This document shows, one piece after another, positions 2,060 through 24,456 of a stretch of DNA of 27,651 nucleotides. Numbering within the stretch: position 1 is the stretch's first letter; every line of letters begins with the position of its first letter. The position numbers and the translations under genes are program-made. The notes beneath the pieces are model-generated. The model made no database searches. It was not told the DNA's origin and saw only the letters and a list, made by a program, of their open reading frames with translations. The DNA is taken from IMG/VR virus record IMGVR_UViG_3300032290_000065, positions 1 to 27,651 of that record. The stretch is one strand, 5' to 3'. This DNA is from a virus (taxonomy: Duplodnaviria; Caudoviricetes).

Positions 2060-3278
2060 ACTTATCTTCAAAGTCTTTATATCTATAATATCCCTTGTCA
2101 AAGTCACACTGGACTAGAAAATCTCCCATAAATCCATTACGGTTTTTACGGAATGCACATTCAATGATATCACTGTTTGTTCCACGGCCCAATGCAAGCA
2201 CCCAATCAGCATCATAAGCAATCTGTCTAGACCATGCCGTTTGACCCAGCGTAGGGACCGTAGAGAGGTCATTAACATCATCTGGTGTAGCAGACGAGAT
2301 AGCAATAATAGGAACTTCTTCACCGATAGCCATTAGTTTAAGTTCTCTTGAAAGGTTCTTCATTCGTACCGTTTCGTTATCTGACTTCTGATTAGGAGCC
2401 ATCAACTGAAGGTAGTCAACGATTACAAAGTCTGGCTTGTACTGGTCAATCTTTCCACGAACAACTGAAGGGTTAATCTCTCCACCGCTATCATTTGAAA
2501 TGATATGAAACTCTGGCTTGCCTGCAAGATTCTTTGCATGCCAATCCTTTAACATATCAATTTCAATCTCGCCATTGCTGATCTTTCTGTGTGACCAACG
2601 ACCCTCACCCATAATAGTAAATACACGATTACGAACTTCGGTCTCAGACATTTCAAGAGAGATTACCATTGGGGACTTACCCTGCTTCCATGCTTGAACA
2701 GCAAAGTAAAGTGCAAGCCACGACTTTCCAATTCCTGGATAAGCAAGGAATACTCCGAGTTGACCTGGCATAATTCCAGCAGGTAAATAATTGTCAAACC
2801 CTGGAAGACCTGTCTTAATTCCAGACAAACCTAGTGCCTGCTGCTTTTTAACATTTTCAAAGTAAGCAATAGCAGACTCAAGATCAGTAACATCAATATC
2901 ACGAATTGCAGCAGTATTCTTTTTTAGTTCTGAAGTCTTTGTAATTAATTCATTAAGGGCACCATTCCCATTATTATTTTGGATTTCAGATGCTGCGGAT
3001 CTAATTATATCCTTTAGGCTATCTGTTAGGTACTCGCCCTGCAACTCTTCAAGATGATGCTTTGTTGCGCCCACACCTGACACTGGATCAAAGTCTCTAA
3101 ACTTTTCAGTAACCAACTCTACTGGTGGTAGGACTGAATTATTTTCAAAATATAGTCTAACGAAATTCCAGATATCTCCGTGTGTTCTAAGAAGGTTGTC
3201 GACATTGGCTTGGAGCAGAACATGGATTTGTTTATCTTTTAAAACAGCCGTAAGTAGTTTTGCCTCTGTGTTATTCAC
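2058..3278 (-). CDS. dnaB: Replicative DnaB-like (SF4) helicase
   Basis: Walker A AYPGIGKS, SLEM, Walker B VIVDYLQLM, SRELK, YDAD and KNRNG motifs; 406 aa; no intein. Confidence 0.95.
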   Translation of the reverse strand: MNNTEAKLLTAVLKDKQIHVLLQANVDNLLRTHGDIWNFVRLYFENNSVLPPVELVTEKFRDFDPVSGVGATKHHLEELQGEYLTDSLKDIIRSAASEIQNNNGNGALNELITKTSELKKNTAAIRDIDVTDLESAIAYFENVKKQQALGLSGIKTGLPGFDNYLPAGIMPGQLGVFLAYPGIGKSWLALYFAVQAWKQGKSPMVISLEMSETEVRNRVFTIMGEGRWSHRKISNGEIEIDMLKDWHAKNLAGKPEFHIISNDSGGEINPSVVRGKIDQYKPDFVIVDYLQLMAPNQKSDNETVRMKNLSRELKLMAIGEEVPIIAISSATPDDVNDLSTVPTLGQTAWSRQIAYDADWVLALGRGTNSDIIECAFRKNRNGFMGDFLVQCDFDKGYYRYKDFEDK

Positions 3279-3579
3279 TTAACCACTCCTTTGCTAATCG
3301 TCTGCGCTCATTGCGCTCTGCTATATCTTTAACTTTATCTTTTTGTGCCTGTAATATTTTTTCTGCATTGTATGCAAAGTGATTCCAAGATGGATTCTCT
3401 GCAACCGAAAAGTAATACTCAAGTATATCGTAGCATCCTGGCAGTGTGTATGATTCTACAAGGGCATCAGAAGCCCACTGCTCTACATTTAGATTAAGAG
3501 ATGGCTTTGATTCGTACCTTGCGGTATGATACTTACTGTATCTTGAAAGCAAAGCCATACGGTCTTTGCGTTCGGCCAT
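3271..3579 (-). CDS. Hypothetical protein, possibly a helicase loader or accessory
   Basis: 102 aa, overlaps both neighbours (translational coupling); function suggested by position only. Confidence 0.7.
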   Translation of the reverse strand: MAERKDRMALLSRYSKYHTARYESKPSLNLNVEQWASDALVESYTLPGCYDILEYYFSVAENPSWNHFAYNAEKILQAQKDKVKDIAERNERRRLAKEWLSE

Positions 3580-11735: not shown

Positions 11736-12370
11736 TATACCTCTTCCAAGGTAACCGAGACATTCCAATAATCAAACTTAGTTCCTCTTTTTTCTACAGA
11801 GTATGAAAAACTTGATATAAACATTTCTACAATTTGGTTATACTGCTGTAGGTGATCATATGGAGACTCAGTTCCTTTAAAAATTCCTTTTCTATCATAT
11901 GCAAGGAACACCCAGAAAGAACCTTTGTGACCGTCATACCATTCAAGCATGTCCGCTCCACCTGCTCCGCCATCTGAAGTATATGAGGTATGAGGAGATA
12001 GTCCTGTTGCTGGATTAAAGCCTGGAACCTCTGCGTGAGACCTTGATGGAATCATATTCCAACTAGTGCTAATCTTCATCTTATCTGCAGTATGGTAGGA
12101 TCTCATACGGCCATTGATCATTCTCTCCCGTTTTTCAATACGCTCATCTGAAAAATCTAAAGGGGTTCTGTTATCATCTGTAAGAATTAGGAATTGGTTT
12201 GCTAGGCTTTGGTCTACTTCAAGAGTTGCATCTGCCCCAACCTCTAGGCCGTAAGGAATATACAAACTATTAATCAGGGTACCAGAGTTTTCAGACCACA
12301 GCATTGCACTAGGTCTGTTATATCTTTTACGCTTTTGCATGTAGTTAAAACTTGGATTAATTGCGGACAT
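11735..12370 (-). CDS. Probable distal tail protein (Dit-like)
   Basis: Immediately after the TMP; 211 aa with RMINGRMR and a C-terminal WNVSVTLEEV strand, typical of Dit/gpM-like proteins. Confidence 0.65.
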   Translation of the reverse strand: MSAINPSFNYMQKRKRYNRPSAMLWSENSGTLINSLYIPYGLEVGADATLEVDQSLANQFLILTDDNRTPLDFSDERIEKRERMINGRMRSYHTADKMKISTSWNMIPSRSHAEVPGFNPATGLSPHTSYTSDGGAGGADMLEWYDGHKGSFWVFLAYDRKGIFKGTESPYDHLQQYNQIVEMFISSFSYSVEKRGTKFDYWNVSVTLEEV

Positions 12371-15300
12371 TTGCGTTTATCCCCCTAACTCTTCTGTCGT
12401 TTACTGTTCTTATTTGTGACATTACTGTCTGTGCAATTTCGTTTGGATTAGCATCCGTCTTTGCATTGACTGTTAATGTATATGTATTATTATACACTGC
12501 CCCGCCGATGTCTGCGCCACTATTGATTTTCTTCATATTATCTACACCATAAGAATCTACAGCATACTTACTCATAACAAATTCTCCTGGGGTTAACATT
12601 GCAGGAACGGTATCTGTACCAATTGAGAACCCTCCCTGAGCAAAATACTTTGGAACAATTCCTCCTGATGAAAGTGCTAGTGGCATATATTTACTGCCAC
12701 CACGATTACCAATTGGTTTAGGCTCTGGCTTAGGTTCTAGTTTAGGCTCTGGTGTTGCCCATATAATACTTCCAAGAGCAGCAGCGCCTCCGCCTATGGC
12801 AAGGGCTGCAGCCTTTATTGGATTCATTGGTGGTGCCAATTCTTTAATTGTGCCAGGTACTAATACTGGAGGTGCTGTTAGTCCTGGGGGTGTTGGCTGA
12901 CCTGGAAGTAGTCGAGCCCAAACCTCTGCTTTTACTTTTAAATCTTCTGCTACCCTTGCAGATGCTTGTCCTGTGACCTTTATGCTTTCTAAAATTAATT
13001 CTGCGTTCTTTTTAAGTTCTTCACCCTTATATCCTGCACCTTTTAACATTTTGAGAATATCTTTTTTGCTAAATGCCTCTAGAATATCTACTCCTTTACC
13101 AATGCCTGCAGAAAGTGCTGAAGTTATTGCTGTCTCTTTCCAAACATTTTTACTAGCGCCAGTAAATGTGAGTAATGGCTTACTAAGTTCACTTGCTAAG
13201 GCTTCAACGGTTGGTGCTTGTGGCATATAATCTAAACTTCTTCCAAAGTCTATAAGTCCTGGAACAAGTGTTTCTGGATTAAGCGTTACGTTTCCGTCAT
13301 GAGTATCAACAAACCTCATCCCAGACATAATTGCAGATCTGAGTCCACTTGCTGCAGCCATGGCTGGATCAGATACTCTGTCAAATTCTTGACCAAGAGT
13401 ACCCGCTTTAGCAGTTAATGCCTTCAGTGTTTGTGCTCCTTGTGCTGCAACATCTGGGCTAAAGACTCCATCTGCTACCTCGGCCCCTTTTCGAAATACT
13501 GGAACATTTGCTGGAGCAATAAGGCCTGATGCTCTGGCAAATATGCTACCAAACATTTCTCTTTGAACGTCCGCAAATTCTAGACCAGTTTTATAGAATC
13601 CAGGAACTCCATCTAAGACTGCTCTGAATGTTGAGTTTATGCCACCCTGAACACCATCTGAACCTTGTTGTCTAGCAAGCGCTTGTCCAATTTCAAGTGC
13701 CTTTTCAGAAATTTGCCCTGGAAGTTTAAATCCTACAGCCTTCTGGCCCAAACTAGGAAATATAGTTGTTAATTTATCTTTTGCTTTCTTAACAAGTGAT
13801 CCTGCAACAGAGGCATAATATCCTGCATTTTTTGCTGGTCTTTGCTGAACACGCTGTAACTCAAATTCTTTTGCTGAAAGTGCCAGCAGGTTATCCCAAA
13901 GAGGATGGCCTTCTTCAATTGCATTCTTGGGGTTATAAGGAATGTTGTGAGTACCCTTAAGCATCCACGAACCGTAGGGAGTTTCTTTAACATATCCTGC
14001 AGCATTCATCTTTTCTATCAGTGGAACCATTGCTTTTTCTACTTTTTTAATTTCAACAGTATCGTTAATAAGCCCCATTCTTGCCTTACCTCTTTGAAGA
14101 CCATCTATAAAACTATTTTTTATATTATAGTGTGGGTTTGCTGCAGGCAAGAAAAGTTCTTTTATTGGTTTAATAACCGCAGATCCTGCTGACTTGATTG
14201 ATCCAAACATATCATTTGAAACACGAGACACAGGTCCAGCAATTGATTTACTAAACATTGGACCAAGTTTTGACAAAAGGCCTCCAGTTTCTTTTATTAA
14301 TGGTGCTGCGGCTTTTGTTCCTTCTTTACCTAATTTACCAATTCCAAGGAAGTTTAGTGGAAAAAATACACCATTAAACTTATCTTCTGTAGTTGCTTGT
14401 CCAGTTATAGTTTTTAAGAAACCAGTCAAGCCAAGAACATCTGCTTCCATCCAGGATGTTAGAGGAGATTTATTAAGTGTTGCTTGTGTTTCTTTATCAG
14501 TTTCTGCTCTAGACCTAGCATATCTAGCAAGCCAAGAATTGTTGTTAGCCCCTGTTTTAGAAGGATCTCTGTCGCCCTTACCAAAGAACTTGCCCAACCC
14601 ACTAGAAGAAGCGGTTGTTTCAGGAGCATTTCTTCCATGTCTATGTCCTACTGGTCCACCTTTATGATAGTATCCGACATTCATTGCGTCAAGATTCTTA
14701 ACACCATACTTATTCACTGCATCTTTTCTTAAGATATATTCTCCTGGTGTAAGCATTGCTGGGACGGTATCAGTTCCCTTTGCATACAGTCCAGACTCAA
14801 AAGCGCTTGGGACAACTCCTCCAGAAGCCATCATCAGCAGTCCCCCGTAGCCACCAAAGCCACCGCCACGGCCACGACCACGGAGCATTCTTGCTTTTTC
14901 TAATTCTTCAAGAAGAGCCTTGTCTGCTAGAGCCTTATCTGCTGCAACCTTATCTGCTGCAATCTTATCTGCTGCAATCTTATCATCTGCAATTTTTTTG
15001 TCTGCTGCTGCTTTATCTTCTGCTGCTTTCTTTTCTCTTGCTGCCTTATCTGCTGGAGTTTCTCCTTCAAAACCTTTTTCTGGAACAAAGGCTTGGCCAT
15101 TAATAAATGCCCCATCTTTGCCACCAACCTCTGCCTTATATCCTGCAATTAAATTTGCCTGAGTACTTATTGCAAGACCCATAGAATCTACAAATGCTGC
15201 GCTCTTAATAAGTGCAAGATCTACCTGGTTTTTAATTGCTTCCCAAGCATCTCTTGTTCTTCCAAGGACAGTAATTCCTTCTATATCCTTATCTAATTGG

Positions 15301-18300
15301 ACCTGTCTTAGGCGAATAAATTCTTGCGCTGGCTCGATCTTTTCTTCTTCGATCTTAAAGACTTCATCCTGAAGATTTTTAATTTCTTCTTCAAGTTGTT
15401 TTCTAGTCTTAAGTTTTCCATCAGTTTTATCAAGTCCTGTTAGGCTACCTAACTCATATTGTCTAGACTGCTCTATAGCATCCCTTTGCTTTGCTACAGC
15501 ATCGGCTGCTGCCTGAGCGCTCATTTCTTGTGCAGCCCTTGCTGCTGCTGCAATGTCTCCAGATGTTAATGCTTCAGCCAGAGACAGTTGTCCCTTTTGC
15601 TGATTAGAGATGGCAGAGTTAGCCTTTTCTATTTCATCTAAGGCTTCAATTCTTTTGTCGTACTTATCGTTAATCTTTTGTTCTTGATCTTCGATGCCCT
15701 TAAGCGCTGCTTCTTTGTCATCTACCTTATACTGAATTGCTGAAATTGCATTTTGTGCATCAGTAACGATCTTGTCTTTTTCTTTTGTATCTACCTTAAA
15801 CTTTAACTGAAGTTCAGTTTCTTGAACATCAAAAGACTCCATTGCATCGCCAAAACCTTTATCAAACATATCCTGCATAAACCCAACTGTGCTTTTTAAC
15901 TGAGCCAGCCTTGTATCAAAATCACTTATTAAAGTATTTAAATCAGCCTGTGCAGTTTTAATAACTTCTTTATCTGCACCTTTCTTAATTAAATTATTAA
16001 CTTTTGACTGCTGAGTAGCAATCACATTTTCCATTGCTTTTAGGTTTTCATCAGAATCAATAGCAAAAGCAGTTGCTGGATCAAACTTCTTTTTAATTCT
16101 TGCCTCTTGAACTCGGTCTTTTTTAAATTTATCAATGTCTGTTCCTACTCCTTTAACCGCTGCTGATTTAAGTTGTGCTGCAGTTAATATTTTATAGTTT
16201 GTTGCTAACTTAGCAACTGACTTTGAGTTCTTCTCCATAGCAATTGCTTGGGCAAGTCCAGCATTTTCAACAATTGAGTAAGCATCTGCAACTGGAATTC
16301 CTATAGAAGCCAACTTAGCAAATGCTATTGCCTGATCTTCAATAACATTAGTTTCTGCTTCTGTCTTTGAGTTAAAGTCTCCCATGGCAATAGAGTTTAG
16401 GGCTTCTTGAATATTTTTAGCATCCTTCTTTAGCCCAATAATGTTTCCCTTATTGTCAAACTTGAACAAAGACTTTTTCTTTTCTTCGTAGACCTTTGGA
16501 TCCATACCAACTATAAGTTCAATAAAGTCTTCACTTCCCCCTATTTTTCTTAGATCATTTTCTATACCGCTGAAAGCATCAAGGGTCTTCTTGCCTCCAA
16601 ACAGGCCATCTAGAGCCTTACGAGAGGCACTCCAGCCCTCTGTGACCTTAATCTGGTTCTTACGTACATCTCTTAGTTTCTTTACTAGGTCGTCCAGTGG
16701 TGAGGACTGTGTCTTGCCCCCGCTGCCATCTGGGGTCGTTGGTGGAACTATTGATGTATCTACTCCAACACCCTCAGTTACAGCCTTAAAACCTTGCTCT
16801 TCTCTGTAGAGAGCAAGTTGTGTTGCAATAGGAAGAGAAGCATAACTTAATCCTCCATAATTCTTTTTACCAATCATCGTGGTTGGAGATTTTTGCCAAT
16901 CAATAAAGTCATCGCTGGCAGCAAGAACTGGGTCTTCAACATATATAGTTGATGCAATAGTTTGAACATATGTTCTTTTCTCAGCATCTGTTTTTAAACT
17001 GTTAAAGTATACTTCATCAAATGCCTCGCTATTTTTAAGTTCTGGAATAAGTTCATAAACTTGTTGCACCTTGATATCCTTCATAGATTCAATACCATCA
17101 AGGGCTGCATTTAGTTTCGCATATGCGTCTTTGCTTTCTGTAGTGTCAGCGCTGTAATAACTAACCAGAATATCTGATGGAATAACTTTGTTTGCGTTAT
17201 TTAATTTAATTATATTCTTTGTAAAATCAAGAGCATCCGAGTCTTTTTCAAATGCGTTAACTTTTGTAATAAACTCTGTTTGTACTGTTTTATTTATATC
17301 TCCCTTAGAGTCAAGAATAACTCCTGCTGCTACGCCAATTGATTCAGAAGTTGCACCACTAAACTGGGTTATAATATTCATCATCATTGGAGCAATATCT
17401 TGATTCTCTGCTGCTAGACCTAGCAGAGTTCTAAATACTGATGGAGGAATATCTCCACTTGCCATCTTTGCTTGAATTAAATATTCTTGACCACTTGTAA
17501 TAAGGCCAGAACTTCGCAAATCCCCTGCTTGTTGATTAACAGAATCTAGGTATGCTAACTGATTAGGATCGTTTTTATACTTTGCAGTTGTTGCTTTTTT
17601 CATTCCGCTCATCATTGACTCTTGAAGGCTACCAGCACCGTCGTATTGCGATACTACATCTTCTTGTAGCAATGCCTGTGCAGCAGTTAAATCATTTCTT
17701 TTTTCAATATACTTTCCTTGCAATTCATTGGCTTCATTTATTTTTCCTTGTAGCCTTAACTCTTCAACCTTTTTTTGATAATACATATCAAAGGAATCAA
17801 GCATTTGTTTATTTTGCTCCATTGCAATTTTAGCATCTACTGCTGCCGTGGCACCTAGCACTGCTGCTTGTTTTACATATTTCTTTGATGTAAAGTATCC
17901 AAACGCTGCTCCTACTGCTGCGCCGATGCCACCACCGATTGCTGCTCCTATAGGCCCACCAATAAATGTTCCAATACCAGCACCTGCTGCTGCGCCACCT
18001 AAAGCAGATGCTCCGATGCCTGCAATTTGCATAGTCTTTTTTCCAGCAAGTTTCCTGACCATGTTCCCACCAACAAAACCATCACCACCACTTGCAGCAA
18101 GAGCGGCACTACTTTTCATATTCTTAGAATTTTTAGCAATCATATCAAGTCTTACCTGAAGAGGATTTTTATCTAAATCTTGTCCATTAGGGCCAAGTAT
18201 TTGCTCTATTTGAGCAATTACTTTAATACCCATAGTTATATCGCCTGCTTGTCTTCCAGCATTCATTGCTAAACTTTTTGCTTGATTCATATCCATTGCG

Positions 18301-21300
18301 CCAGACATAATTGAGTTTGTTAACTGATTTGACAAATCTCCAATTGCTTGCCCACCTTTTCCTATGGCATTTTGTTCTGAAAGTCTTTTTGTAATGGCCT
18401 TACCTTCTTCTGTCTGAACAAAGGCTTCTCCATATGTTGTTTTACCAGTTGCCGAAGCAGTCATGTTGAAAGAATTTTTTCTTTTAAGATCCATTTGCTC
18501 TGATGCTGTTACTTTATTACCAAACTTTGCTATACTATTTATTGCAGAAGTAGATCCTTTAAACTTCTCTCCCTGTTCCAGAATTTCGTCTGCTGCTTTA
18601 TCAAATGCCATTCTTAAAGCAGCCATTGCTCCTACAGTTGCTAATAATCCAATTGCAACTGCAGCCATAGGACTCTTTAGCATTGGAAGAACCATTGAAA
18701 GACCCATTAAAGGCATCATTAGTTTTGTAGATATTTCTCCAACTTTTCCTGGTGCCATAGAACCAATCATTGTTGCACCTGCTGCAATGCCAACTCCTGC
18801 GGTTACGCCACCACCTTTACCTTTAAATTTTGCTACTCCTGCTTGAGCCTTTGCTCTGAGTTTTTCCCTTCGACTTGGCTCATTGGCTGCAGCAGAGGCT
18901 GCTGCTTTTTCACTAATAACTTTTTGCTGATATGCTACCTGCTCAGCAATCTGGCTCTTAGTGTATCCTTTTCTGCGTAAAGATTTTTCAAATGGAGTTA
19001 TAGCAGTTCCAGGTTCAGCACCATACAATTTAGTTTTTGATGCTCTTGCCATTGATTGTGTTTTTCTTTGTTGTCTTGCTTCTTGTCTTTCAATTTTTTG
19101 TAGTCTTCTTCTTACAGACTTTGCGTCAGCATCCATCGGTCCCGTGCCATATAGAGCAGTTCTGGATGCTGCTGCTGCAGACTGAGATAGTGTTGTTCCA
19201 ATATTAGCGCCAACTGCTCTGGCCTCTGGGATAGACCCTTTTGCTCCTGCTACTACCGCACTTGCAGTTGTAGACATTGCATCTGGAGCATTTGATCTTC
19301 CACGAATTACAGGTCTCTGACGAACTGCTGGAGCAAGTTCTGCTGGAGCAAGTCTTGAATCCTTTGGACTGCCCGTGTCTGATTTAAATGCACCATTATT
19401 TGGTTCTGTTGGTATTGGCTTTGTCTTTCCCTTTTCATCTTCAAGAACTTCATCGGGCTTTACTAAAATCATGCTGTGCTTTTGATGTAGTCTTCTCCAG
19501 TCAACAGATAGTCCTACCTTAAGTCTTTCTAGCATTTTTAAATATTCAGGCTTTAAAGGATCTGAGTTAGACATTTTTGCAACATAAGGCTCCATTAGTT
19601 TAATCTGTCTACTAATTTCTTTTTTCATTTCCCTATCATATTGATCTGGTGTTAGGTTTAGAGCAATGTCTTTGGTTGCATTAGCAAACCAGTTTGGAGA
19701 ATTTTGTGGTTTTCCTTTACTTTTTTCTGGAATGCCCTTTAGGTTTTCTTCTGCCATCTGTTCTAGAGATGGCATATTCTTTGAAAATTCTTTATCTAAA
19801 GCACCAGATGCTCTATCAAAGACACCCATGGTGCCTCCGTCTGTCATTACATTTCCTCCGAGATTACCTGCCTTAAGGTCTTTGTCTCCACGAAGGCTTG
19901 CTGCAACCAACTGCTTAAAATATTCTGCTTGAGTAAATTTCTTTGGAATATTGTTTGGATCAAACTTTTTATCAAAGGGAGACTCTAAAACAATTATCTT
20001 TCTTTTACCTTCTGGATCTGTAGGATCAATCATTGTCCTAACTTTTTGTACTGGAGCATCAAGTCCTTGAACTTTTCTAGCAAAGTCTGTTGCTCTTTGT
20101 TCTGCCAAAGCATCCAACTCGCTCATCATTGGTTTTACAAAAACTCTCTTGCCATCTGGCTTTTCGTAAACACCCCCGATTTCACGAACATCAAAACTTC
20201 TTCCACTGCTTCCTGCTATTTGTTTTCCAAAATCTGTAGGCTTCTTCTTTCCAGTTTTAGTGGTTTCTGCAACTCTTGATATCTCTTTTAATCTTTCTTG
20301 CTGGCTTTGGGCTTTTTCCATATTCTCTGCAATTAATTCTGGTGCTCTGACTGGTGCACCTGCAGGTGTCTGACTTATTCCTGGTGCGGTTCCTGCTCCA
20401 AGGCGATTCATGTTTGTTGTTGTTGGCTCAGCAAGCGGTATTCCCATATAGGTTCCATCGTGTAGTGTAACGGTAGAACTTCTAGTTACAATCTTGTCGG
20501 TACGACCCGCCCCTGTTCCTGGTCCCGATTCAATAGTAAAAGACTTGATGTAGGTTTTTCCAGTGTCAGGATCAATAGTAGACGCTGCATGCTGTAGAAT
20601 TTCTGCACTTCTTGCTGGTGTGTTTCCTAAACCTTTACCCATGTTAAACAGGTAGTCTGTTGCATAAAGTCTTTGAGCCTTTTTTAATCCTTCATCATTA
20701 GGGCTTACAACTTTTGGAATTTCTTCTTTAAATATTCTATCAACTATTCCGTCTGTAATCATTGGGCCCTTGACATCTGCAAATGATCTTAAGAATGCAT
20801 CGTCTATCGCTTGTGCCTGGACTGGGGTCATTCCTGAAAGATGCCATTTACCTGCACCTCTGCGTTTCCACTCATCAATAAACTCTTGCTTTGAAACGCC
20901 CACTGTAGGCATTTGTTTGTTCATCCACTCAGGCCACTCAAATATTAGCCCATGCTTTGTTGTTGTAACTGCCTCCATGCCCTGAGACTTAAAGATCTGG
21001 GACATTGTTATGAGTTTGTTTCTTTGATCAGGAGTCATATGAGGGTTTGAATCAATGACCTCTTGAATACTCTTTGGAGTACTCTTTCCTCCAACATGTG
21101 TTTTGTTAGTTACGTTATTGTCTTTTACAATTTCTTTAGGTACTCCAACAGGTTGTACATCGCCTTCTCCAGTATTAAATCCTTGAACAGTTTGGCCTGC
21201 AATCATTCTTGCAATTACTGGCTTGTTGCCTGGGTCTTGTGCAGCACCTGCTGGAATAACTGCTTCTCCAGGAGTGAGCATTGCTGGAACTGTGTCTTGA

Positions 21301-23327
21301 TTTCCTGATCCTGGAACTCTTCTTGTTCCTGTAGAAAACTTCTTAGGTCCTGGCATCCTCTTGCCAGCAGGTGGTCCAGTAAATCCCATTTGTGCTGCGA
21401 TTGCTCTTCTATATGCATTTGCTAAGTTATTAACTGCTGTTGCTTCAGATGTAAAGGTTTGATTTAATTTTTGATGGACTTGATCAAGAGATGCTGCTAC
21501 TGCTGAGGCTTCTAACTGTTCCTTAGTTAGATAGTTTGTCTGCTCCCCCAAAACTTTGCTAGAATTTCCTGTTTTGTTATACATAGACTTCATATTTGCA
21601 AATAGTTTAATTATGTTAGCAAAAGCATTTGCAACTAGTCCAATTGTCATAAGCAGGACTGGTCCTATTCCTGCAACTGCAACAGTAAAGATAGTTAAGA
21701 ATTTTTTACTACCGTCTCCTAGCCCATTAAACTTTTCAAGAATCTTTCCAACAAACTCAACAATAGGTGTTAGCGCTTTTAAGAACTGTTCTCCAACTGG
21801 AGCAATAGCCAACTTAAGATCTTCCATTGACTTTTTAAATTTATAGGTTGTTGTGTTTTGGACCTTGTCTAATTCTCTCTGTGATAAGATTGCAAGTTCT
21901 TCTGTGGTTGCTTGCGTTAGTTGAAGCACTCTATTTGCTTGTGTACCCTGCGCCGTTACATTCTGAAATAATGTAGAAAGTCTTGAGAATTGGAACTTAC
22001 CAAACAACTGTTCAATTGCTCTTGCACGGTTGAGTGGATCTAGTGTATCAAGTGCTTGTGAAAAGCCAACAACAGTTGCCTTAATGTCTCCAGCATTTCC
22101 TTCAACAATTCCTTTAATGTTAATTCCAAGATCAGCAAGAAATGCACTTGCTTTTGCAGATGGATTAATTAAAGATGCAAGACCAGACTTAAGTGCGTTG
22201 GCGCCTTCTGATGCATTAATTCCACCTTCTTTCATTGCTGTAAGGAAGAATGCTAAATCTTCTACATCTCCACCTAGTTGCTGAACAACTGGGCCAGCCT
22301 TTGGAATTGCAATTGTTAAATCTTCAATTGATACAACAGTCTGGTTTTCAACTGCGTTAAGGAAGTCAATCTTTTTAGCAAGATCTTCTGTTGCTACTCC
22401 AAATGCATTAGTTACTGAAATAGTTGTTTCTAATGCTTGCTCTTGCTCTACTCCACCAAGAACGGCAAGTCTGGTTGCTTGTGCAACCTGAGCCATAAGT
22501 GCTGCTCCTTGTTTACCCATTGCTGCTGCATCTGCAGCCATCTTCATTGTATCTTCTACAGCAACTCCATACTTTGTATATTCTTTTGCAAGAGTCTGTA
22601 TCTGCTTAATCATTGCATCAGTTTCTTCTTGCGTTGTAAACAGTTCTCCGTATACACGCTTGAACCTAATTGCCTGCTCTTCAAGTTTCATAAATGTCTT
22701 GGAAGCAGTTACTCCAAGCATTGCTAGAGGAACAGTGAAACCAACCATTAACTGGCGACCAGCCCACTGAGTATTCTTACCAAAGTTTAGAAGGTTGGTT
22801 GATCCTTGCTTTAATAATTGATTAAGTAGTTGCTGTCTTTGTGCTGCAATGGCTGTCTGTGTACCCAGATTTTTCATATCAAGGGTTAGAGGTCTTACTG
22901 CAATTGCTTGTAGAGCACCGTTTGCTCCACGACCCAACTTTATATATTGGGTTTGAATATCTTTTACACGCTCTCGTGCTACCTTGTTTATTGTCTCAAA
23001 TTCAGACTTAAATAGTCGGCCAAAGGTCTTTGTTGCTGCGCCAGTGTATCTAAAATATTCTCTAGATGTTAACTTGTTTCTTTCTAAAGAATCAGTAAAA
23101 TGCTCTGTGCTTGATGTTACTGATCGCATAGATGCCTGGAATTGTCCAGTAGCATTTATGCTGTTCATCAAGTTCTGTGCTTGATTTGCTGCCACCGCTG
23201 CTGCTGCGGTGCCAGACTTTGCCATTTGTGTATGGAAGGCTGATATTTGACGTTGCAGAAGTTTTAGACTTGCTAAAGCATCAGACGTATCAATATTTAC
23301 ATGAATATTGGATTCTACATCAGCCAT
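12357..23327 (-). CDS. Giant tape measure protein (TP901-family N-terminal domain) with embedded kinase-like cargo domains
   Basis: 3656 aa between the chaperones and Dit; TP901-type TMP block (LTAMKEGGINASEGANALKSGLASLINP, AIEQLFGK), several hydrophobic segments, long coiled coil, and a C-terminal NNTYTLTVNAKTDANPNEIAQTV cap; GAGGTG SD. Confidence 0.93.
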   Translation of the reverse strand: MADVESNIHVNIDTSDALASLKLLQRQISAFHTQMAKSGTAAAAVAANQAQNLMNSINATGQFQASMRSVTSSTEHFTDSLERNKLTSREYFRYTGAATKTFGRLFKSEFETINKVARERVKDIQTQYIKLGRGANGALQAIAVRPLTLDMKNLGTQTAIAAQRQQLLNQLLKQGSTNLLNFGKNTQWAGRQLMVGFTVPLAMLGVTASKTFMKLEEQAIRFKRVYGELFTTQEETDAMIKQIQTLAKEYTKYGVAVEDTMKMAADAAAMGKQGAALMAQVAQATRLAVLGGVEQEQALETTISVTNAFGVATEDLAKKIDFLNAVENQTVVSIEDLTIAIPKAGPVVQQLGGDVEDLAFFLTAMKEGGINASEGANALKSGLASLINPSAKASAFLADLGINIKGIVEGNAGDIKATVVGFSQALDTLDPLNRARAIEQLFGKFQFSRLSTLFQNVTAQGTQANRVLQLTQATTEELAILSQRELDKVQNTTTYKFKKSMEDLKLAIAPVGEQFLKALTPIVEFVGKILEKFNGLGDGSKKFLTIFTVAVAGIGPVLLMTIGLVANAFANIIKLFANMKSMYNKTGNSSKVLGEQTNYLTKEQLEASAVAASLDQVHQKLNQTFTSEATAVNNLANAYRRAIAAQMGFTGPPAGKRMPGPKKFSTGTRRVPGSGNQDTVPAMLTPGEAVIPAGAAQDPGNKPVIARMIAGQTVQGFNTGEGDVQPVGVPKEIVKDNNVTNKTHVGGKSTPKSIQEVIDSNPHMTPDQRNKLITMSQIFKSQGMEAVTTTKHGLIFEWPEWMNKQMPTVGVSKQEFIDEWKRRGAGKWHLSGMTPVQAQAIDDAFLRSFADVKGPMITDGIVDRIFKEEIPKVVSPNDEGLKKAQRLYATDYLFNMGKGLGNTPARSAEILQHAASTIDPDTGKTYIKSFTIESGPGTGAGRTDKIVTRSSTVTLHDGTYMGIPLAEPTTTNMNRLGAGTAPGISQTPAGAPVRAPELIAENMEKAQSQQERLKEISRVAETTKTGKKKPTDFGKQIAGSSGRSFDVREIGGVYEKPDGKRVFVKPMMSELDALAEQRATDFARKVQGLDAPVQKVRTMIDPTDPEGKRKIIVLESPFDKKFDPNNIPKKFTQAEYFKQLVAASLRGDKDLKAGNLGGNVMTDGGTMGVFDRASGALDKEFSKNMPSLEQMAEENLKGIPEKSKGKPQNSPNWFANATKDIALNLTPDQYDREMKKEISRQIKLMEPYVAKMSNSDPLKPEYLKMLERLKVGLSVDWRRLHQKHSMILVKPDEVLEDEKGKTKPIPTEPNNGAFKSDTGSPKDSRLAPAELAPAVRQRPVIRGRSNAPDAMSTTASAVVAGAKGSIPEARAVGANIGTTLSQSAAAASRTALYGTGPMDADAKSVRRRLQKIERQEARQQRKTQSMARASKTKLYGAEPGTAITPFEKSLRRKGYTKSQIAEQVAYQQKVISEKAAASAAANEPSRREKLRAKAQAGVAKFKGKGGGVTAGVGIAAGATMIGSMAPGKVGEISTKLMMPLMGLSMVLPMLKSPMAAVAIGLLATVGAMAALRMAFDKAADEILEQGEKFKGSTSAINSIAKFGNKVTASEQMDLKRKNSFNMTASATGKTTYGEAFVQTEEGKAITKRLSEQNAIGKGGQAIGDLSNQLTNSIMSGAMDMNQAKSLAMNAGRQAGDITMGIKVIAQIEQILGPNGQDLDKNPLQVRLDMIAKNSKNMKSSAALAASGGDGFVGGNMVRKLAGKKTMQIAGIGASALGGAAAGAGIGTFIGGPIGAAIGGGIGAAVGAAFGYFTSKKYVKQAAVLGATAAVDAKIAMEQNKQMLDSFDMYYQKKVEELRLQGKINEANELQGKYIEKRNDLTAAQALLQEDVVSQYDGAGSLQESMMSGMKKATTAKYKNDPNQLAYLDSVNQQAGDLRSSGLITSGQEYLIQAKMASGDIPPSVFRTLLGLAAENQDIAPMMMNIITQFSGATSESIGVAAGVILDSKGDINKTVQTEFITKVNAFEKDSDALDFTKNIIKLNNANKVIPSDILVSYYSADTTESKDAYAKLNAALDGIESMKDIKVQQVYELIPELKNSEAFDEVYFNSLKTDAEKRTYVQTIASTIYVEDPVLAASDDFIDWQKSPTTMIGKKNYGGLSYASLPIATQLALYREEQGFKAVTEGVGVDTSIVPPTTPDGSGGKTQSSPLDDLVKKLRDVRKNQIKVTEGWSASRKALDGLFGGKKTLDAFSGIENDLRKIGGSEDFIELIVGMDPKVYEEKKKSLFKFDNKGNIIGLKKDAKNIQEALNSIAMGDFNSKTEAETNVIEDQAIAFAKLASIGIPVADAYSIVENAGLAQAIAMEKNSKSVAKLATNYKILTAAQLKSAAVKGVGTDIDKFKKDRVQEARIKKKFDPATAFAIDSDENLKAMENVIATQQSKVNNLIKKGADKEVIKTAQADLNTLISDFDTRLAQLKSTVGFMQDMFDKGFGDAMESFDVQETELQLKFKVDTKEKDKIVTDAQNAISAIQYKVDDKEAALKGIEDQEQKINDKYDKRIEALDEIEKANSAISNQQKGQLSLAEALTSGDIAAAARAAQEMSAQAAADAVAKQRDAIEQSRQYELGSLTGLDKTDGKLKTRKQLEEEIKNLQDEVFKIEEEKIEPAQEFIRLRQVQLDKDIEGITVLGRTRDAWEAIKNQVDLALIKSAAFVDSMGLAISTQANLIAGYKAEVGGKDGAFINGQAFVPEKGFEGETPADKAAREKKAAEDKAAADKKIADDKIAADKIAADKVAADKALADKALLEELEKARMLRGRGRGGGFGGYGGLLMMASGGVVPSAFESGLYAKGTDTVPAMLTPGEYILRKDAVNKYGVKNLDAMNVGYYHKGGPVGHRHGRNAPETTASSSGLGKFFGKGDRDPSKTGANNNSWLARYARSRAETDKETQATLNKSPLTSWMEADVLGLTGFLKTITGQATTEDKFNGVFFPLNFLGIGKLGKEGTKAAAPLIKETGGLLSKLGPMFSKSIAGPVSRVSNDMFGSIKSAGSAVIKPIKELFLPAANPHYNIKNSFIDGLQRGKARMGLINDTVEIKKVEKAMVPLIEKMNAAGYVKETPYGSWMLKGTHNIPYNPKNAIEEGHPLWDNLLALSAKEFELQRVQQRPAKNAGYYASVAGSLVKKAKDKLTTIFPSLGQKAVGFKLPGQISEKALEIGQALARQQGSDGVQGGINSTFRAVLDGVPGFYKTGLEFADVQREMFGSIFARASGLIAPANVPVFRKGAEVADGVFSPDVAAQGAQTLKALTAKAGTLGQEFDRVSDPAMAAASGLRSAIMSGMRFVDTHDGNVTLNPETLVPGLIDFGRSLDYMPQAPTVEALASELSKPLLTFTGASKNVWKETAITSALSAGIGKGVDILEAFSKKDILKMLKGAGYKGEELKKNAELILESIKVTGQASARVAEDLKVKAEVWARLLPGQPTPPGLTAPPVLVPGTIKELAPPMNPIKAAALAIGGGAAALGSIIWATPEPKLEPKPEPKPIGNRGGSKYMPLALSSGGIVPKYFAQGGFSIGTDTVPAMLTPGEFVMSKYAVDSYGVDNMKKINSGADIGGAVYNNTYTLTVNAKTDANPNEIAQTVMSQIRTVNDRRVRGINANVRN
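12582..12614 (-). repeat. DTVPAMLTPGE motif copy 3 (aa 3572-3582)
   Basis: Exact 11-aa repeat, in context SSGGIVP...GTDTVPAMLTPGEFVMSKYAVDSYG. Confidence 0.95.
12920..13700 (-). other. HipA/PI3K-like atypical kinase domain 2 within the TMP (boundaries approximate)
   Basis: Gly loop GGINST, beta3 Lys (FYK, K3246), helix Glu (QREM), GLIAP, catalytic loop D3341-T-H-D-G-N, metal-binding IDFG (D3360). Confidence 0.8.
14739..14771 (-). repeat. DTVPAMLTPGE motif copy 2 (aa 2853-2863)
   Basis: Exact 11-aa repeat, in context ASGGVVP...GTDTVPAMLTPGEYILRKDAVNKYG. Confidence 0.95.
14919..15055 (-). repeat. 15-bp tandem repeat encoding (A/D)ADK(I/V/A) pentapeptides in the TMP
   Basis: Plus-strand unit CTTATCTGCTGCAA(C/T), about 3 near-perfect and several degenerate copies; protein ADKKIADDKIAADKIAADKVAADKALADK. 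Confidence 0.9.
19480..20240 (-). other. HipA/PI3K-like atypical kinase domain 1 within the TMP (boundaries approximate)
   Basis: GGVYEKPDGKRVFVK (K1065), ALAEQ helix Glu, GLDAP, catalytic loop GDK-D1150-L-K-A-G-N, then T-D1163-G-G in the DFG position. Confidence 0.7.
21264..21296 (-). repeat. DTVPAMLTPGE motif copy 1 (aa 678-688)
   Basis: Exact 11-aa repeat, in context FSTG...VPGSGNQDTVPAMLTPGEAVIP. Confidence 0.95.
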
Positions 23328-23345: not shown

Positions 23346-23672
23346 TTAGTTATTTGCAAGGTTGCCGAGAAGTGATGCCTCAGAAAGTTTAATTCCTGAT
23401 GCCTCTTCGACAATCTTGTATACTGTTGGAAGGTCTAGATTTTCTTCTAGGGCTTCCTTGTCTTCTGCCAATTCTGGCTTGTATTGACGCATTGCTATTT
23501 GTACACAGTCGATAAGCAAGTCCATAGACTTTTCATTATCGTCTGCAACCTTTGCAATATCTTCAAACTTCTTCATAAAAGGACGAAGTAGTGAAATTTT
23601 AAGCGGTCTAACTTTGATCTTAGTACCATCAATTAGTGTTACTGTGTTTTCTTCTGTTGTGGCAGTTGCCAT
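23346..23672 (-). CDS. Tail assembly chaperone, short gpG-like form (start revised to MATATTEE, 108 aa)
   Basis: Small acidic protein between the major tail protein and the TMP; AGGAGG SD 5-6 nt before the ATG at 23672; homologous to the N-terminal half of the adjacent gene. Confidence 0.8.
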   Translation of the reverse strand: MATATTEENTVTLIDGTKIKVRPLKISLLRPFMKKFEDIAKVADDNEKSMDLLIDCVQIAMRQYKPELAEDKEALEENLDLPTVYKIVEEASGIKLSEASLLGNLANN

Positions 23673-23696
23673 TTGGCCCTCCTTATAAGGTTTAGT

Positions 23697-23707
23697 CAAT
23701 TATACCA
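23697..23707 (-). promoter_or_regulatory. Extended -10 promoter for the short chaperone and TMP
   Basis: TGGTATAATTG in the intergenic gap, 26 nt upstream of the ATG; no -35. Confidence 0.65.
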
Positions 23708-23727
23708 TAGCGCAGGCCTATTTTTGA

Positions 23728-24408
23728 TTAATCGTAAGACTCATAATCAAGACCCATGCCTATTCCAAAACCAGCCCTCTCAGCAGATGCGCCTTGTAAA
23801 GCCAGAATATCATTACCATCACCAGTTGCACCTTTGCTAAAGACTCTGGCCTTCATGTCTTCCCACGCATTACCGCTACCAGAATTTTTATCTAAATCTA
23901 CACCCTGCATAGCAGCAGTAAATTTTTTATCTCCATAGTCTAATTCTCTTTTTATTTTTAATGTGGCTGTTAGTTCTTGCATTGACATAGAGGATTCTAG
24001 TTGATCATAGTCTTTCCATATACCAATTAAAAAAACCTCTGATTCTAGTTTTGCTAAATCTAATGTATCCCAGGTTGATCCACTATCAACTGCTTGATCC
24101 TTAACAGGATCTTCTGACTTCTGGTTAATTTTAATCCCTGCTGCTATATCGATCACTTCATATATAGTTGGCAAATCAAGGCTATCCTCTAAGTCTTCTA
24201 TTGTTTTTATAGATGGGCAATATTGTTGCATTGCAATAAGAGCACAGTGAGCCAGAACAGATATTGATTCGTCATCTGTTTTTGCTTCCTTGATTGTTTC
24301 AAAGGTATCTAAAAATTCTCTTAAATATTTTATTTTCAATGGTGCAGCAACTACCACTCTATCATCTACTAATGATATTTTTTTTGTGTCATATATTCTT
24401 GTTGCCAT
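23728..24408 (-). CDS. Tail assembly chaperone, long gpGT-like form (start revised to MATRIY, 226 aa)
   Basis: N-terminal ~100 aa paralogous to the short chaperone; C-terminal W-x-D-Y-x-x-LESSMSMQEL block resembles gpT-type extensions; leaderless start. Confidence 0.75.
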   Translation of the reverse strand: MATRIYDTKKISLVDDRVVVAAPLKIKYLREFLDTFETIKEAKTDDESISVLAHCALIAMQQYCPSIKTIEDLEDSLDLPTIYEVIDIAAGIKINQKSEDPVKDQAVDSGSTWDTLDLAKLESEVFLIGIWKDYDQLESSMSMQELTATLKIKRELDYGDKKFTAAMQGVDLDKNSGSGNAWEDMKARVFSKGATGDGNDILALQGASAERAGFGIGMGLDYESYD

Positions 24409-24412
24409 TATA

Positions 24413-24423
24413 CAAGTATACCA
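24413..24423 (-). promoter_or_regulatory. Extended -10 promoter, leaderless
   Basis: TGGTATACT-TGTATA-ATG, no SD; abuts the U-tract of the upstream terminator. Confidence 0.65.
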
Positions 24424-24456
24424 AACAGAAAGGCCCAACCCCGAAGGATTGAGCCT
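24423..24456 (-). terminator. Intrinsic terminator after the major tail protein gene
   Basis: Minus strand AGGCTCAATCC-TTCG-GGGTTGGGCCT-TTCTGTTT: 11-bp stem (2 G-U pairs), C(UUCG)G tetraloop, U-rich tail, 16 nt after the stop. Confidence 0.88.

Follow-up and report, generated by a model that had tools for sequence, protein, structure and literature searches.

Why should a single phage protein carry the same eleven residues three times, and what happens at these places? The protein is the tail tape measure protein (TMP) of 3,656 residues encoded on the minus strand (12357-23327) of IMG/VR record IMGVR_UViG_3300032290_000065, a 27,651-nt phage contig that as a whole is the window analysed here; all parts of the gene given below lie on that strand. 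An earlier note had proposed that exact copies of DTVPAMLTPGE mark the boundaries of cargo segments in this protein. We find that the 11-mer is the core of a larger module and that cassettes are swapped at this module. We further propose, with a probability of roughly 0.5, that the module is both a swap joint and a maturation-cut signal, which would make the TMP a polyprotein.

A repeated module in the tape measure protein

The 11-mer starts at nucleotides 21296, 14771 and 12614 (residues 678, 2853 and 3572) and, as the earlier note stated, occurs three times identically; it is found nowhere else in the six reading frames, and the expectation of such repetition from composition is ~1e-10 per protein. 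The DNA copies share 26-28 of 33 nucleotides with a longest exact run of 6-11 nt, and 4-6 of the 11 codons differ, in agreement with the proposed divergence at many synonymous positions. The exactness itself is not special, because the exact form is the modal form in the family, seen in 68 of 110 C-terminal copies and 16 of 115 first copies of the relatives. The wider context suggested for the motif, (F/M/L)-x-x-G(G)-x-VP, holds for copies 2 (MASGGVVP) and 3 (LSSGGIVP) and only loosely for copy 1 (FSTGTRRVP), and the GE is followed by AV, YI and FV in the three copies.

Around this core lies a module of ~60 residues, consisting of an [FYML]-A-x-G-G opener, a glycine-rich stretch, the D.VPAML.PGE core, a helix and often an [FY]-x-x-G-G closer. 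Copy 1 (residues 664-720; 21168-21338, with the 11-mer at 21264-21296) extends from an FSTG opener to a GFNTG closer, copy 2 (residues 2833-2891; 14655-14831, 11-mer at 14739-14771) from MASGG to YHKGG, and copy 3 (residues 3552-3604; 12516-12674, 11-mer at 12582-12614) has two openers, LSSGG and FAQGG, and no closer. The A-x-G-G opener upstream of the GE core is thus recognisable in this TMP, and over 688 copies it is enriched at positions D-25 to D-10. An alignment that includes all copy types (A1, 102 rows) shows no variation in the core residues D, G and E.

Three locus scans gave 200 loci. Their 146 closed TMP frames encode 116 distinct proteins, or 117 once the TMP of the window is counted. 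By a local profile, 102 of these carry two copies, nine carry three, one carries four and five carry one, three of the last being shorter than 1,700 residues. A copy lies near residue 680 in all 117 proteins, and nearly all have another ~80 residues from the C-terminal end, so the expected position near the C-terminus recurs, but the motif is not usually single in this family. At E 0.001, profile A1 finds 32,505 matches among 1.84 billion cluster representatives. The top 150 matches are 1,847-7,872 residues long, 60 proteins listed among them carry 4-10 copies, and PF10145 (PhageMin_Tail) was found in 23 of 26 multi-copy proteins scanned from this set. Two TMP-like proteins of 7,794 and 7,872 residues (P0002 and P0003) have 9-10 copies.

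Cultured phages, too, have the module in their TMPs. A scan of 102 module rows returned no common Pfam or NCBIfam family, so that a defined joint of 60 residues, shared by at least 32,505 protein clusters, is absent from both databases. The family phrog_35029, of unknown function, matches three stretches of the TMP, best at residues 3550-3606; it overlaps the module and carries no function or description. TMP processing and TMP-borne enzymes are known already; no published description of the module as a repeated joint was found in full-text searches of a literature that includes few subscription papers. Further literature consulted comprises PMC6802176, PMC10172136, PMC13033339, PMC11445458 and PMC7824862.

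Cassettes are swapped at the module

Copies 2 and 3 lie 719 residues apart and, as had been proposed, flank a cassette (residues 2904-3554; 12667-14617). A different strain, L041, which stands outside the identity profile, motif-form counts, cargo typing, scaffold tree, change-point pairs and kinase-flank counts, is 99.0% identical to the window at the DNA level from 23400 to 14618 and 98.4% identical from 12666 to 11701. In L041 the 1,951 nt between these stretches are taken up by an unrelated cassette, with no blastp match to that of the window. The left break lies 12 codons beyond the closer of copy 2, and the right one coincides with the xxGG opener of copy 3. Both breakpoints are shared by a further relative, L002, whose cassette is 81% identical to that of L041, and a contig of run X7 ceases to align at 14618 and continues for 496 letters. 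Positions 12961-13734 are without cover in the contigs of 4 of 22 listed runs, which we did not use as evidence. The window cassette is shared with 14 distant TMPs, where its kinase-like part is 49-59% identical while the conserved scaffold ahead of copy 2 is only 13-34% identical (14 of 15 matches); in all 14 this part sits between the last two modules, and five of them carry a tandem pair of cassettes.

Exchange is also seen behind copy 1, where identity to relatives drops from 0.58 to 0.28 within 50 residues. The first cargo could be typed in 103 of 111 relatives, yielding 19 sequence types, and on a scaffold tree (FastTree; 19 types, 103 rows) the type changes at least 40 times, compared with 65-68 in five shuffles. 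We located the DNA change point in 23 close, disjoint pairs that differ in their first cargo; it fell at D+22 to D+52 in 19, at D-33 to D-24 in three and at +108 in one, that is, in the module or at its edge in 22 pairs. Taken with the L041 and L002 breakpoints and the 14 distant TMPs, this bears out the claim that the motif marks cargo boundaries and that homologue alignments break there. A strict nucleotide screen of 114 genes returned three replacement events, which have the module at both ends, at one end and at neither end, respectively.

Such clustering of breakpoints at the module might suggest that the copies are repeated DNA that recombines, a recombination handle as the earlier note had put it. 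Moreover, the pre-core half of the module tracks the upstream segment (0.51 vs 0.37) and the post-core half the downstream segment (0.50 vs 0.44) in pairs that are not independent, which is what a crossover inside the module predicts. However, the copies share at most 11 exact nucleotides and are only 44-60% identical over the wider module. Breakpoint clustering also needs no special DNA signal, because the module, a conserved protein stretch beside variable cargo, is the last homology available. A handle at the level of DNA is therefore very unlikely. Even less probable is that duplications of the TMP C-terminus left the internal copies behind as passive remnants: extra copies do come and go, but copy 1 is kept near residue 680 in 117 of 117 proteins, and its D, G and E belong to the invariant set of the 102-row alignment.

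Cargo domains and module copies

Cargo block 1, behind copy 1, holds two domains. The first (residues ~730-990; 20358-21140) is confidently modelled, with pLDDT mostly 85-94, is polymorphic among relatives and gave no Pfam or PDB sequence match; a His-Me nuclease, considered from a resemblance, found no Pfam or PDB support and was dropped. The second (residues ~1025-1290; 19458-20255) is predicted to adopt an atypical kinase fold of the CotH/HipA/CtkA/PI4K type. Its model aligns to CotH (5jda) with a VIA-align Z of 11.2 and an rmsd of 4.1 over 217 residues, followed by CtkA (Z 8.9) and HipA/HipT (Z 8.2), all top rows being kinases, and the best Foldseek match has E 7e-3. Its invariant residues are K, E, DxD, N and DxG, so that the catalytic K, E, D-x-x-x-x-N and D-x-G of a kinase fold are all present. 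In the cassette, residues ~3235-3480 are kinase-like as a lead only, with kinase-family neighbours in the ESM Atlas at 0.80-0.81 (under 0.9) and an hhalign value of 0.3% to the first kinase. At the end of the alternative cassette of L041 (L041:10057-12081) lies a domain that has a G-x-G-x-Y-F motif and no Pfam match; related pieces occur in L030 and P0034. The motif is reminiscent of ADP-ribosyltransferase folds, but this assignment had no Pfam or PDB support and was rejected.

Module copies do not count domains. The idea that a copy precedes each cargo block stands insofar as a copy opens each block, but not each domain: in the TMP of the window two domains follow a single copy, and no copy closes block 1. 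Among 93 carriers of the block 1 kinase, the module lies on both sides in 21, only before it in 15, only after it in three and on neither side in 54. Copy number and length correlate with a rho of 0.82 in the best 150 matches, a value biased by score-based selection, and with a rho of 0.15 (p 0.10) in 113 members of the family. In larger TMPs, 540 inter-module segments fall into 310 clusters, 246 of them singletons. Pfam named almost no cargo in 26 of the 150 multi-copy proteins, too little to compare the numbers of copies and named domains, and regular-expression signatures for cargo classes were too loose to use, the kinase excepted. The TMP gene does not fit polymorphic toxin systems, in which a toxin domain goes with an adjacent immunity gene and orphan cassettes: conserved tail genes directly flank it, with no small gene between.

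The module as a candidate maturation-cut signal

Two model phages suggest what the module may do besides joining cassettes. The TMP of phage T5, pb2, is cut after R1127 (PMC10038345), and this site reads FVPR|AEGG, directly before the opener of a short module that is widespread. With a short motif as search pattern, we collected 120 loci (116 distinct), and a profile built from these scored the T5 site at 24.5 bits, compared with at most 1.4 for shuffles. An xxGG lies upstream of the short module in 115 of the 116, although it was absent from the search pattern. T5 pb2 resembles the module in a cut directly before an A-x-G-G opener and a GE-containing motif near the C-terminus, and differs in having a single copy of a shorter, [RK]AxGG..VGE.GPE type.

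Phage lambda gpH loses a ~14-kDa C-terminal piece after tail assembly, and the site and the catalyst are given as unknown in PMC12617516. Residues 733-785 are the best match to the module profile within gpH, with 6.2 bits compared with 2.2 for the best of 500 shuffles, and hhalign pairs the module with gpH at 48% (pairwise E 2e-4, 43 columns), a match near the C-terminus that is weak but position-specific. The region, FATGG...HRGEFV...GYATGG, has the same opener-core-closer layout, ~120 residues from the C-terminus, and gpH is cut nearby. Unlike the TMP of the window, gpH has one copy, no known cargo and a core without the invariant D. In one large TMP (P0165, 4,001 residues), long modules occur together with a short module of the T5 type, lone FHTGG/FHKGG joints and a third form at the C-terminus.

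Because the T5 cut precedes AEGG, lambda gpH resembles the module and P0165 mixes forms and lone openers, we take the opener to be the probable place of cutting and the cores to be partners that can stand in for one another. On this reading, a cut immediately ahead of the AxGG opener in each copy would divide the ruler, once the tail is assembled, into separately ejected pieces of ~72, 233, 77 and 10 kDa, the second cut being set at about residue 2833. These pieces would be scaffold 1, cargo block 1 with scaffold 2, the cassette, and a tip plug, so that every new piece starts with a module. A duplicate of an ancestral C-terminal cut module would provide a new cargo slot, and surviving crossovers would cluster at the module because exchange between two modules would keep any cassette in frame and allow its correct release. 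The cargo would likely be delivered and act on the host after ejection.

Several observations weigh against a cut. None has been observed for any long module, and no protease has been identified. The lambda match is weak, and cutting gpH at F733|A734 gives 79.8 and 12.5 kDa, compared with published estimates of ~78 and ~14 kDa, the authors having modelled gpH* as 691-730 residues (PMC12617516). The T5-type profile gives nothing above 2 bits in the TMP of the window and fails to match the long module (hhalign 0.16% and 1.2%), and both forms occur together in only 1 of 282 protein records. The kinase is found without an adjacent module in 54 of 93 carriers, the TMP of the window included, modules in larger TMPs also part conserved scaffold segments, two of the three strict nucleotide-level replacement events have at least one end away from the module, and modules are present in proteins not annotated as TMPs.

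Two such proteins came to our attention. Gp81 of pelagiphage HTVC104P (L202:6144-7445; 433 residues), which is not a TMP, lies between portal and capsid genes and has one C-terminal module core and several xAxGG-like repeats. Gene 012 of the T4-like cyanophage S-SM2 (L203:6002-8302), beside baseplate hub genes, carries the module at residues 326-393 with 63 bits.

These portal-adjacent and T4-like proteins would suit a joint that stays uncut and serves structure or loading, either as a flexible hinge rich in glycine or as a tag bound by chaperones, and so allows non-helical cargo to thread the tube and refold independently after ejection. All the swap evidence fits such a joint equally well. 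A monomer model of the module (pLDDT 75.7, pTM 0.44) has a confident core (residues 31-50, pLDDT 88-90) with little regular structure, as a hinge might, though the model does not decide between readings. The module region is also unresolved in tail tips: the solved tip of Douge resolves only residues 1658-1699 of a TMP with copies at 964 and 1411, and that of lambda only gpH 818-849 (PMC12617516). Still, the near-invariant core D, G and E and the strict opener exceed the needs of a hinge, and the one TMP cut that has been mapped lies immediately ahead of an opener of this kind, so that we hold an uncut joint to be possible but doubtful. Because the resolved TMP ends in Douge and lambda exclude the module, docking on Dit or the hub, another suggestion of the earlier note, is unlikely too.

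Alternatively, the module could head each cargo block as a signal for membrane entry or sorting after ejection. It lies ahead of cell-wall-enzyme-like regions in the GMA4 and Tomas TMPs, by motifs seen by eye, and ahead of kinase cargo here, where block 1 sits between two hydrophobic segments in the hydropathy profile. This reading is quite improbable, as no cargo follows the terminal copy, the module is present in lambda, where no cargo is known, and the module itself is not hydrophobic by hydropathy.

The maturation-cut reading has a bolder form, which we consider unlikely: the module would be self-cleaving, its invariant Asp/Glu core cutting before the AxGG opener. This would explain the lambda gpH maturation cut, predicted at F733|A734, and would make giant TMPs with up to 10 copies, as well as some myovirus and podovirus virion proteins, programmable polyproteins that inject swappable effector sets.

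Searches with the monomer model gave no BFVD match at E 0.001 and none at Z 2 in 48,161 chains, the model being too small to inform. A likeness to LexA, at E 0.35-0.54, was dismissed as chance. The ESM Atlas clusters nearest to the module are hypothetical proteins of 55-77 residues, possibly fragments, and a cluster of crAss cargo protein 1 appears among the neighbours at a low score of 0.76.

Related systems and implications

Over scaffold 1, the TMP of the Streptomyces phage Tomas shows 30% identity, and it carries a module at 1645-1702; the TMPs of Gordonia phage GMA4 and mycobacteriophage Douge have two modules each. By eye, the cargo of these three is cell-wall-enzyme-like, whereas that of the window TMP consists of kinase-fold domains and others without assignment, and differs between near-identical strains. 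A TMP-derived carrier with exchangeable functional domains is likewise seen in the Sle1-type effectors of actinobacterial contractile injection systems, which, unlike a phage TMP, belong to a bacterial nanomachine (PMC13277306). If cutting holds true, the ruler of this abundant family of lake phages would serve to inject cassettes, and strains that are 99% identical would exchange the payload. The module offers a residue-level prediction for lambda gpH, whose place and mechanism of cutting the 2025 structure paper (PMC12617516) gives as unknown, and it points to cultured phages with internal copies (GMA4, Douge, Tomas).

The tape measure gene and its setting

Assignment of the protein as a long-tail TMP rests on its domain and gene order. 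PF10145 is found at residues 246-443 (E 3e-24; 86.4 bits, compared with a curated cut-off of 33.2), and the protein matches ten PHROG tape-measure families. Upstream genes match PHROGs of tail-tube-position and chaperone-position genes, a minor tail protein of 1,473 residues is encoded downstream, and this tail gene order is that of phages Tomas and Gilson. By scaffold, the nearest cultured relatives are Streptomyces phages of the Stanwilliamsviridae (28-31% identity). Parts of the window are present in 20 listed runs, 19 labelled lake or fresh water and none of them an RNA run. Given these relatives and labels, the host is probably a lake actinobacterium.

Scaffold 1 (residues 1-663; 21339-23327), with a hydrophobic segment at residues 541-579, is conserved, with a mean identity of 0.6-0.9 per 50-residue bin in 112 relatives. 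Scaffold 2 (residues ~1496-2832; 14832-18840) was delimited by the coverage of relatives, 92-98% of which cover residues 1501-2750, and has a hydrophobic segment at residues 1543-1576; another lies at residues 3504-3526 in the cassette. The C-terminal 52 residues (12357-12515), kept in 98% of relatives, probably form a tail-tip plug, judging from the solved TMP ends of Douge, lambda, T5 and JBD30.

Ahead of copy 2, a low-complexity A/D/K repeat (14900-15060) forms a linker, hypervariable among relatives, in which two of the three replacement events from the strict nucleotide screen lie. Upstream of the TMP gene, two adjacent genes (23346-24438) both match phrog_10504, apparently a duplicated domain at the tail-chaperone position.

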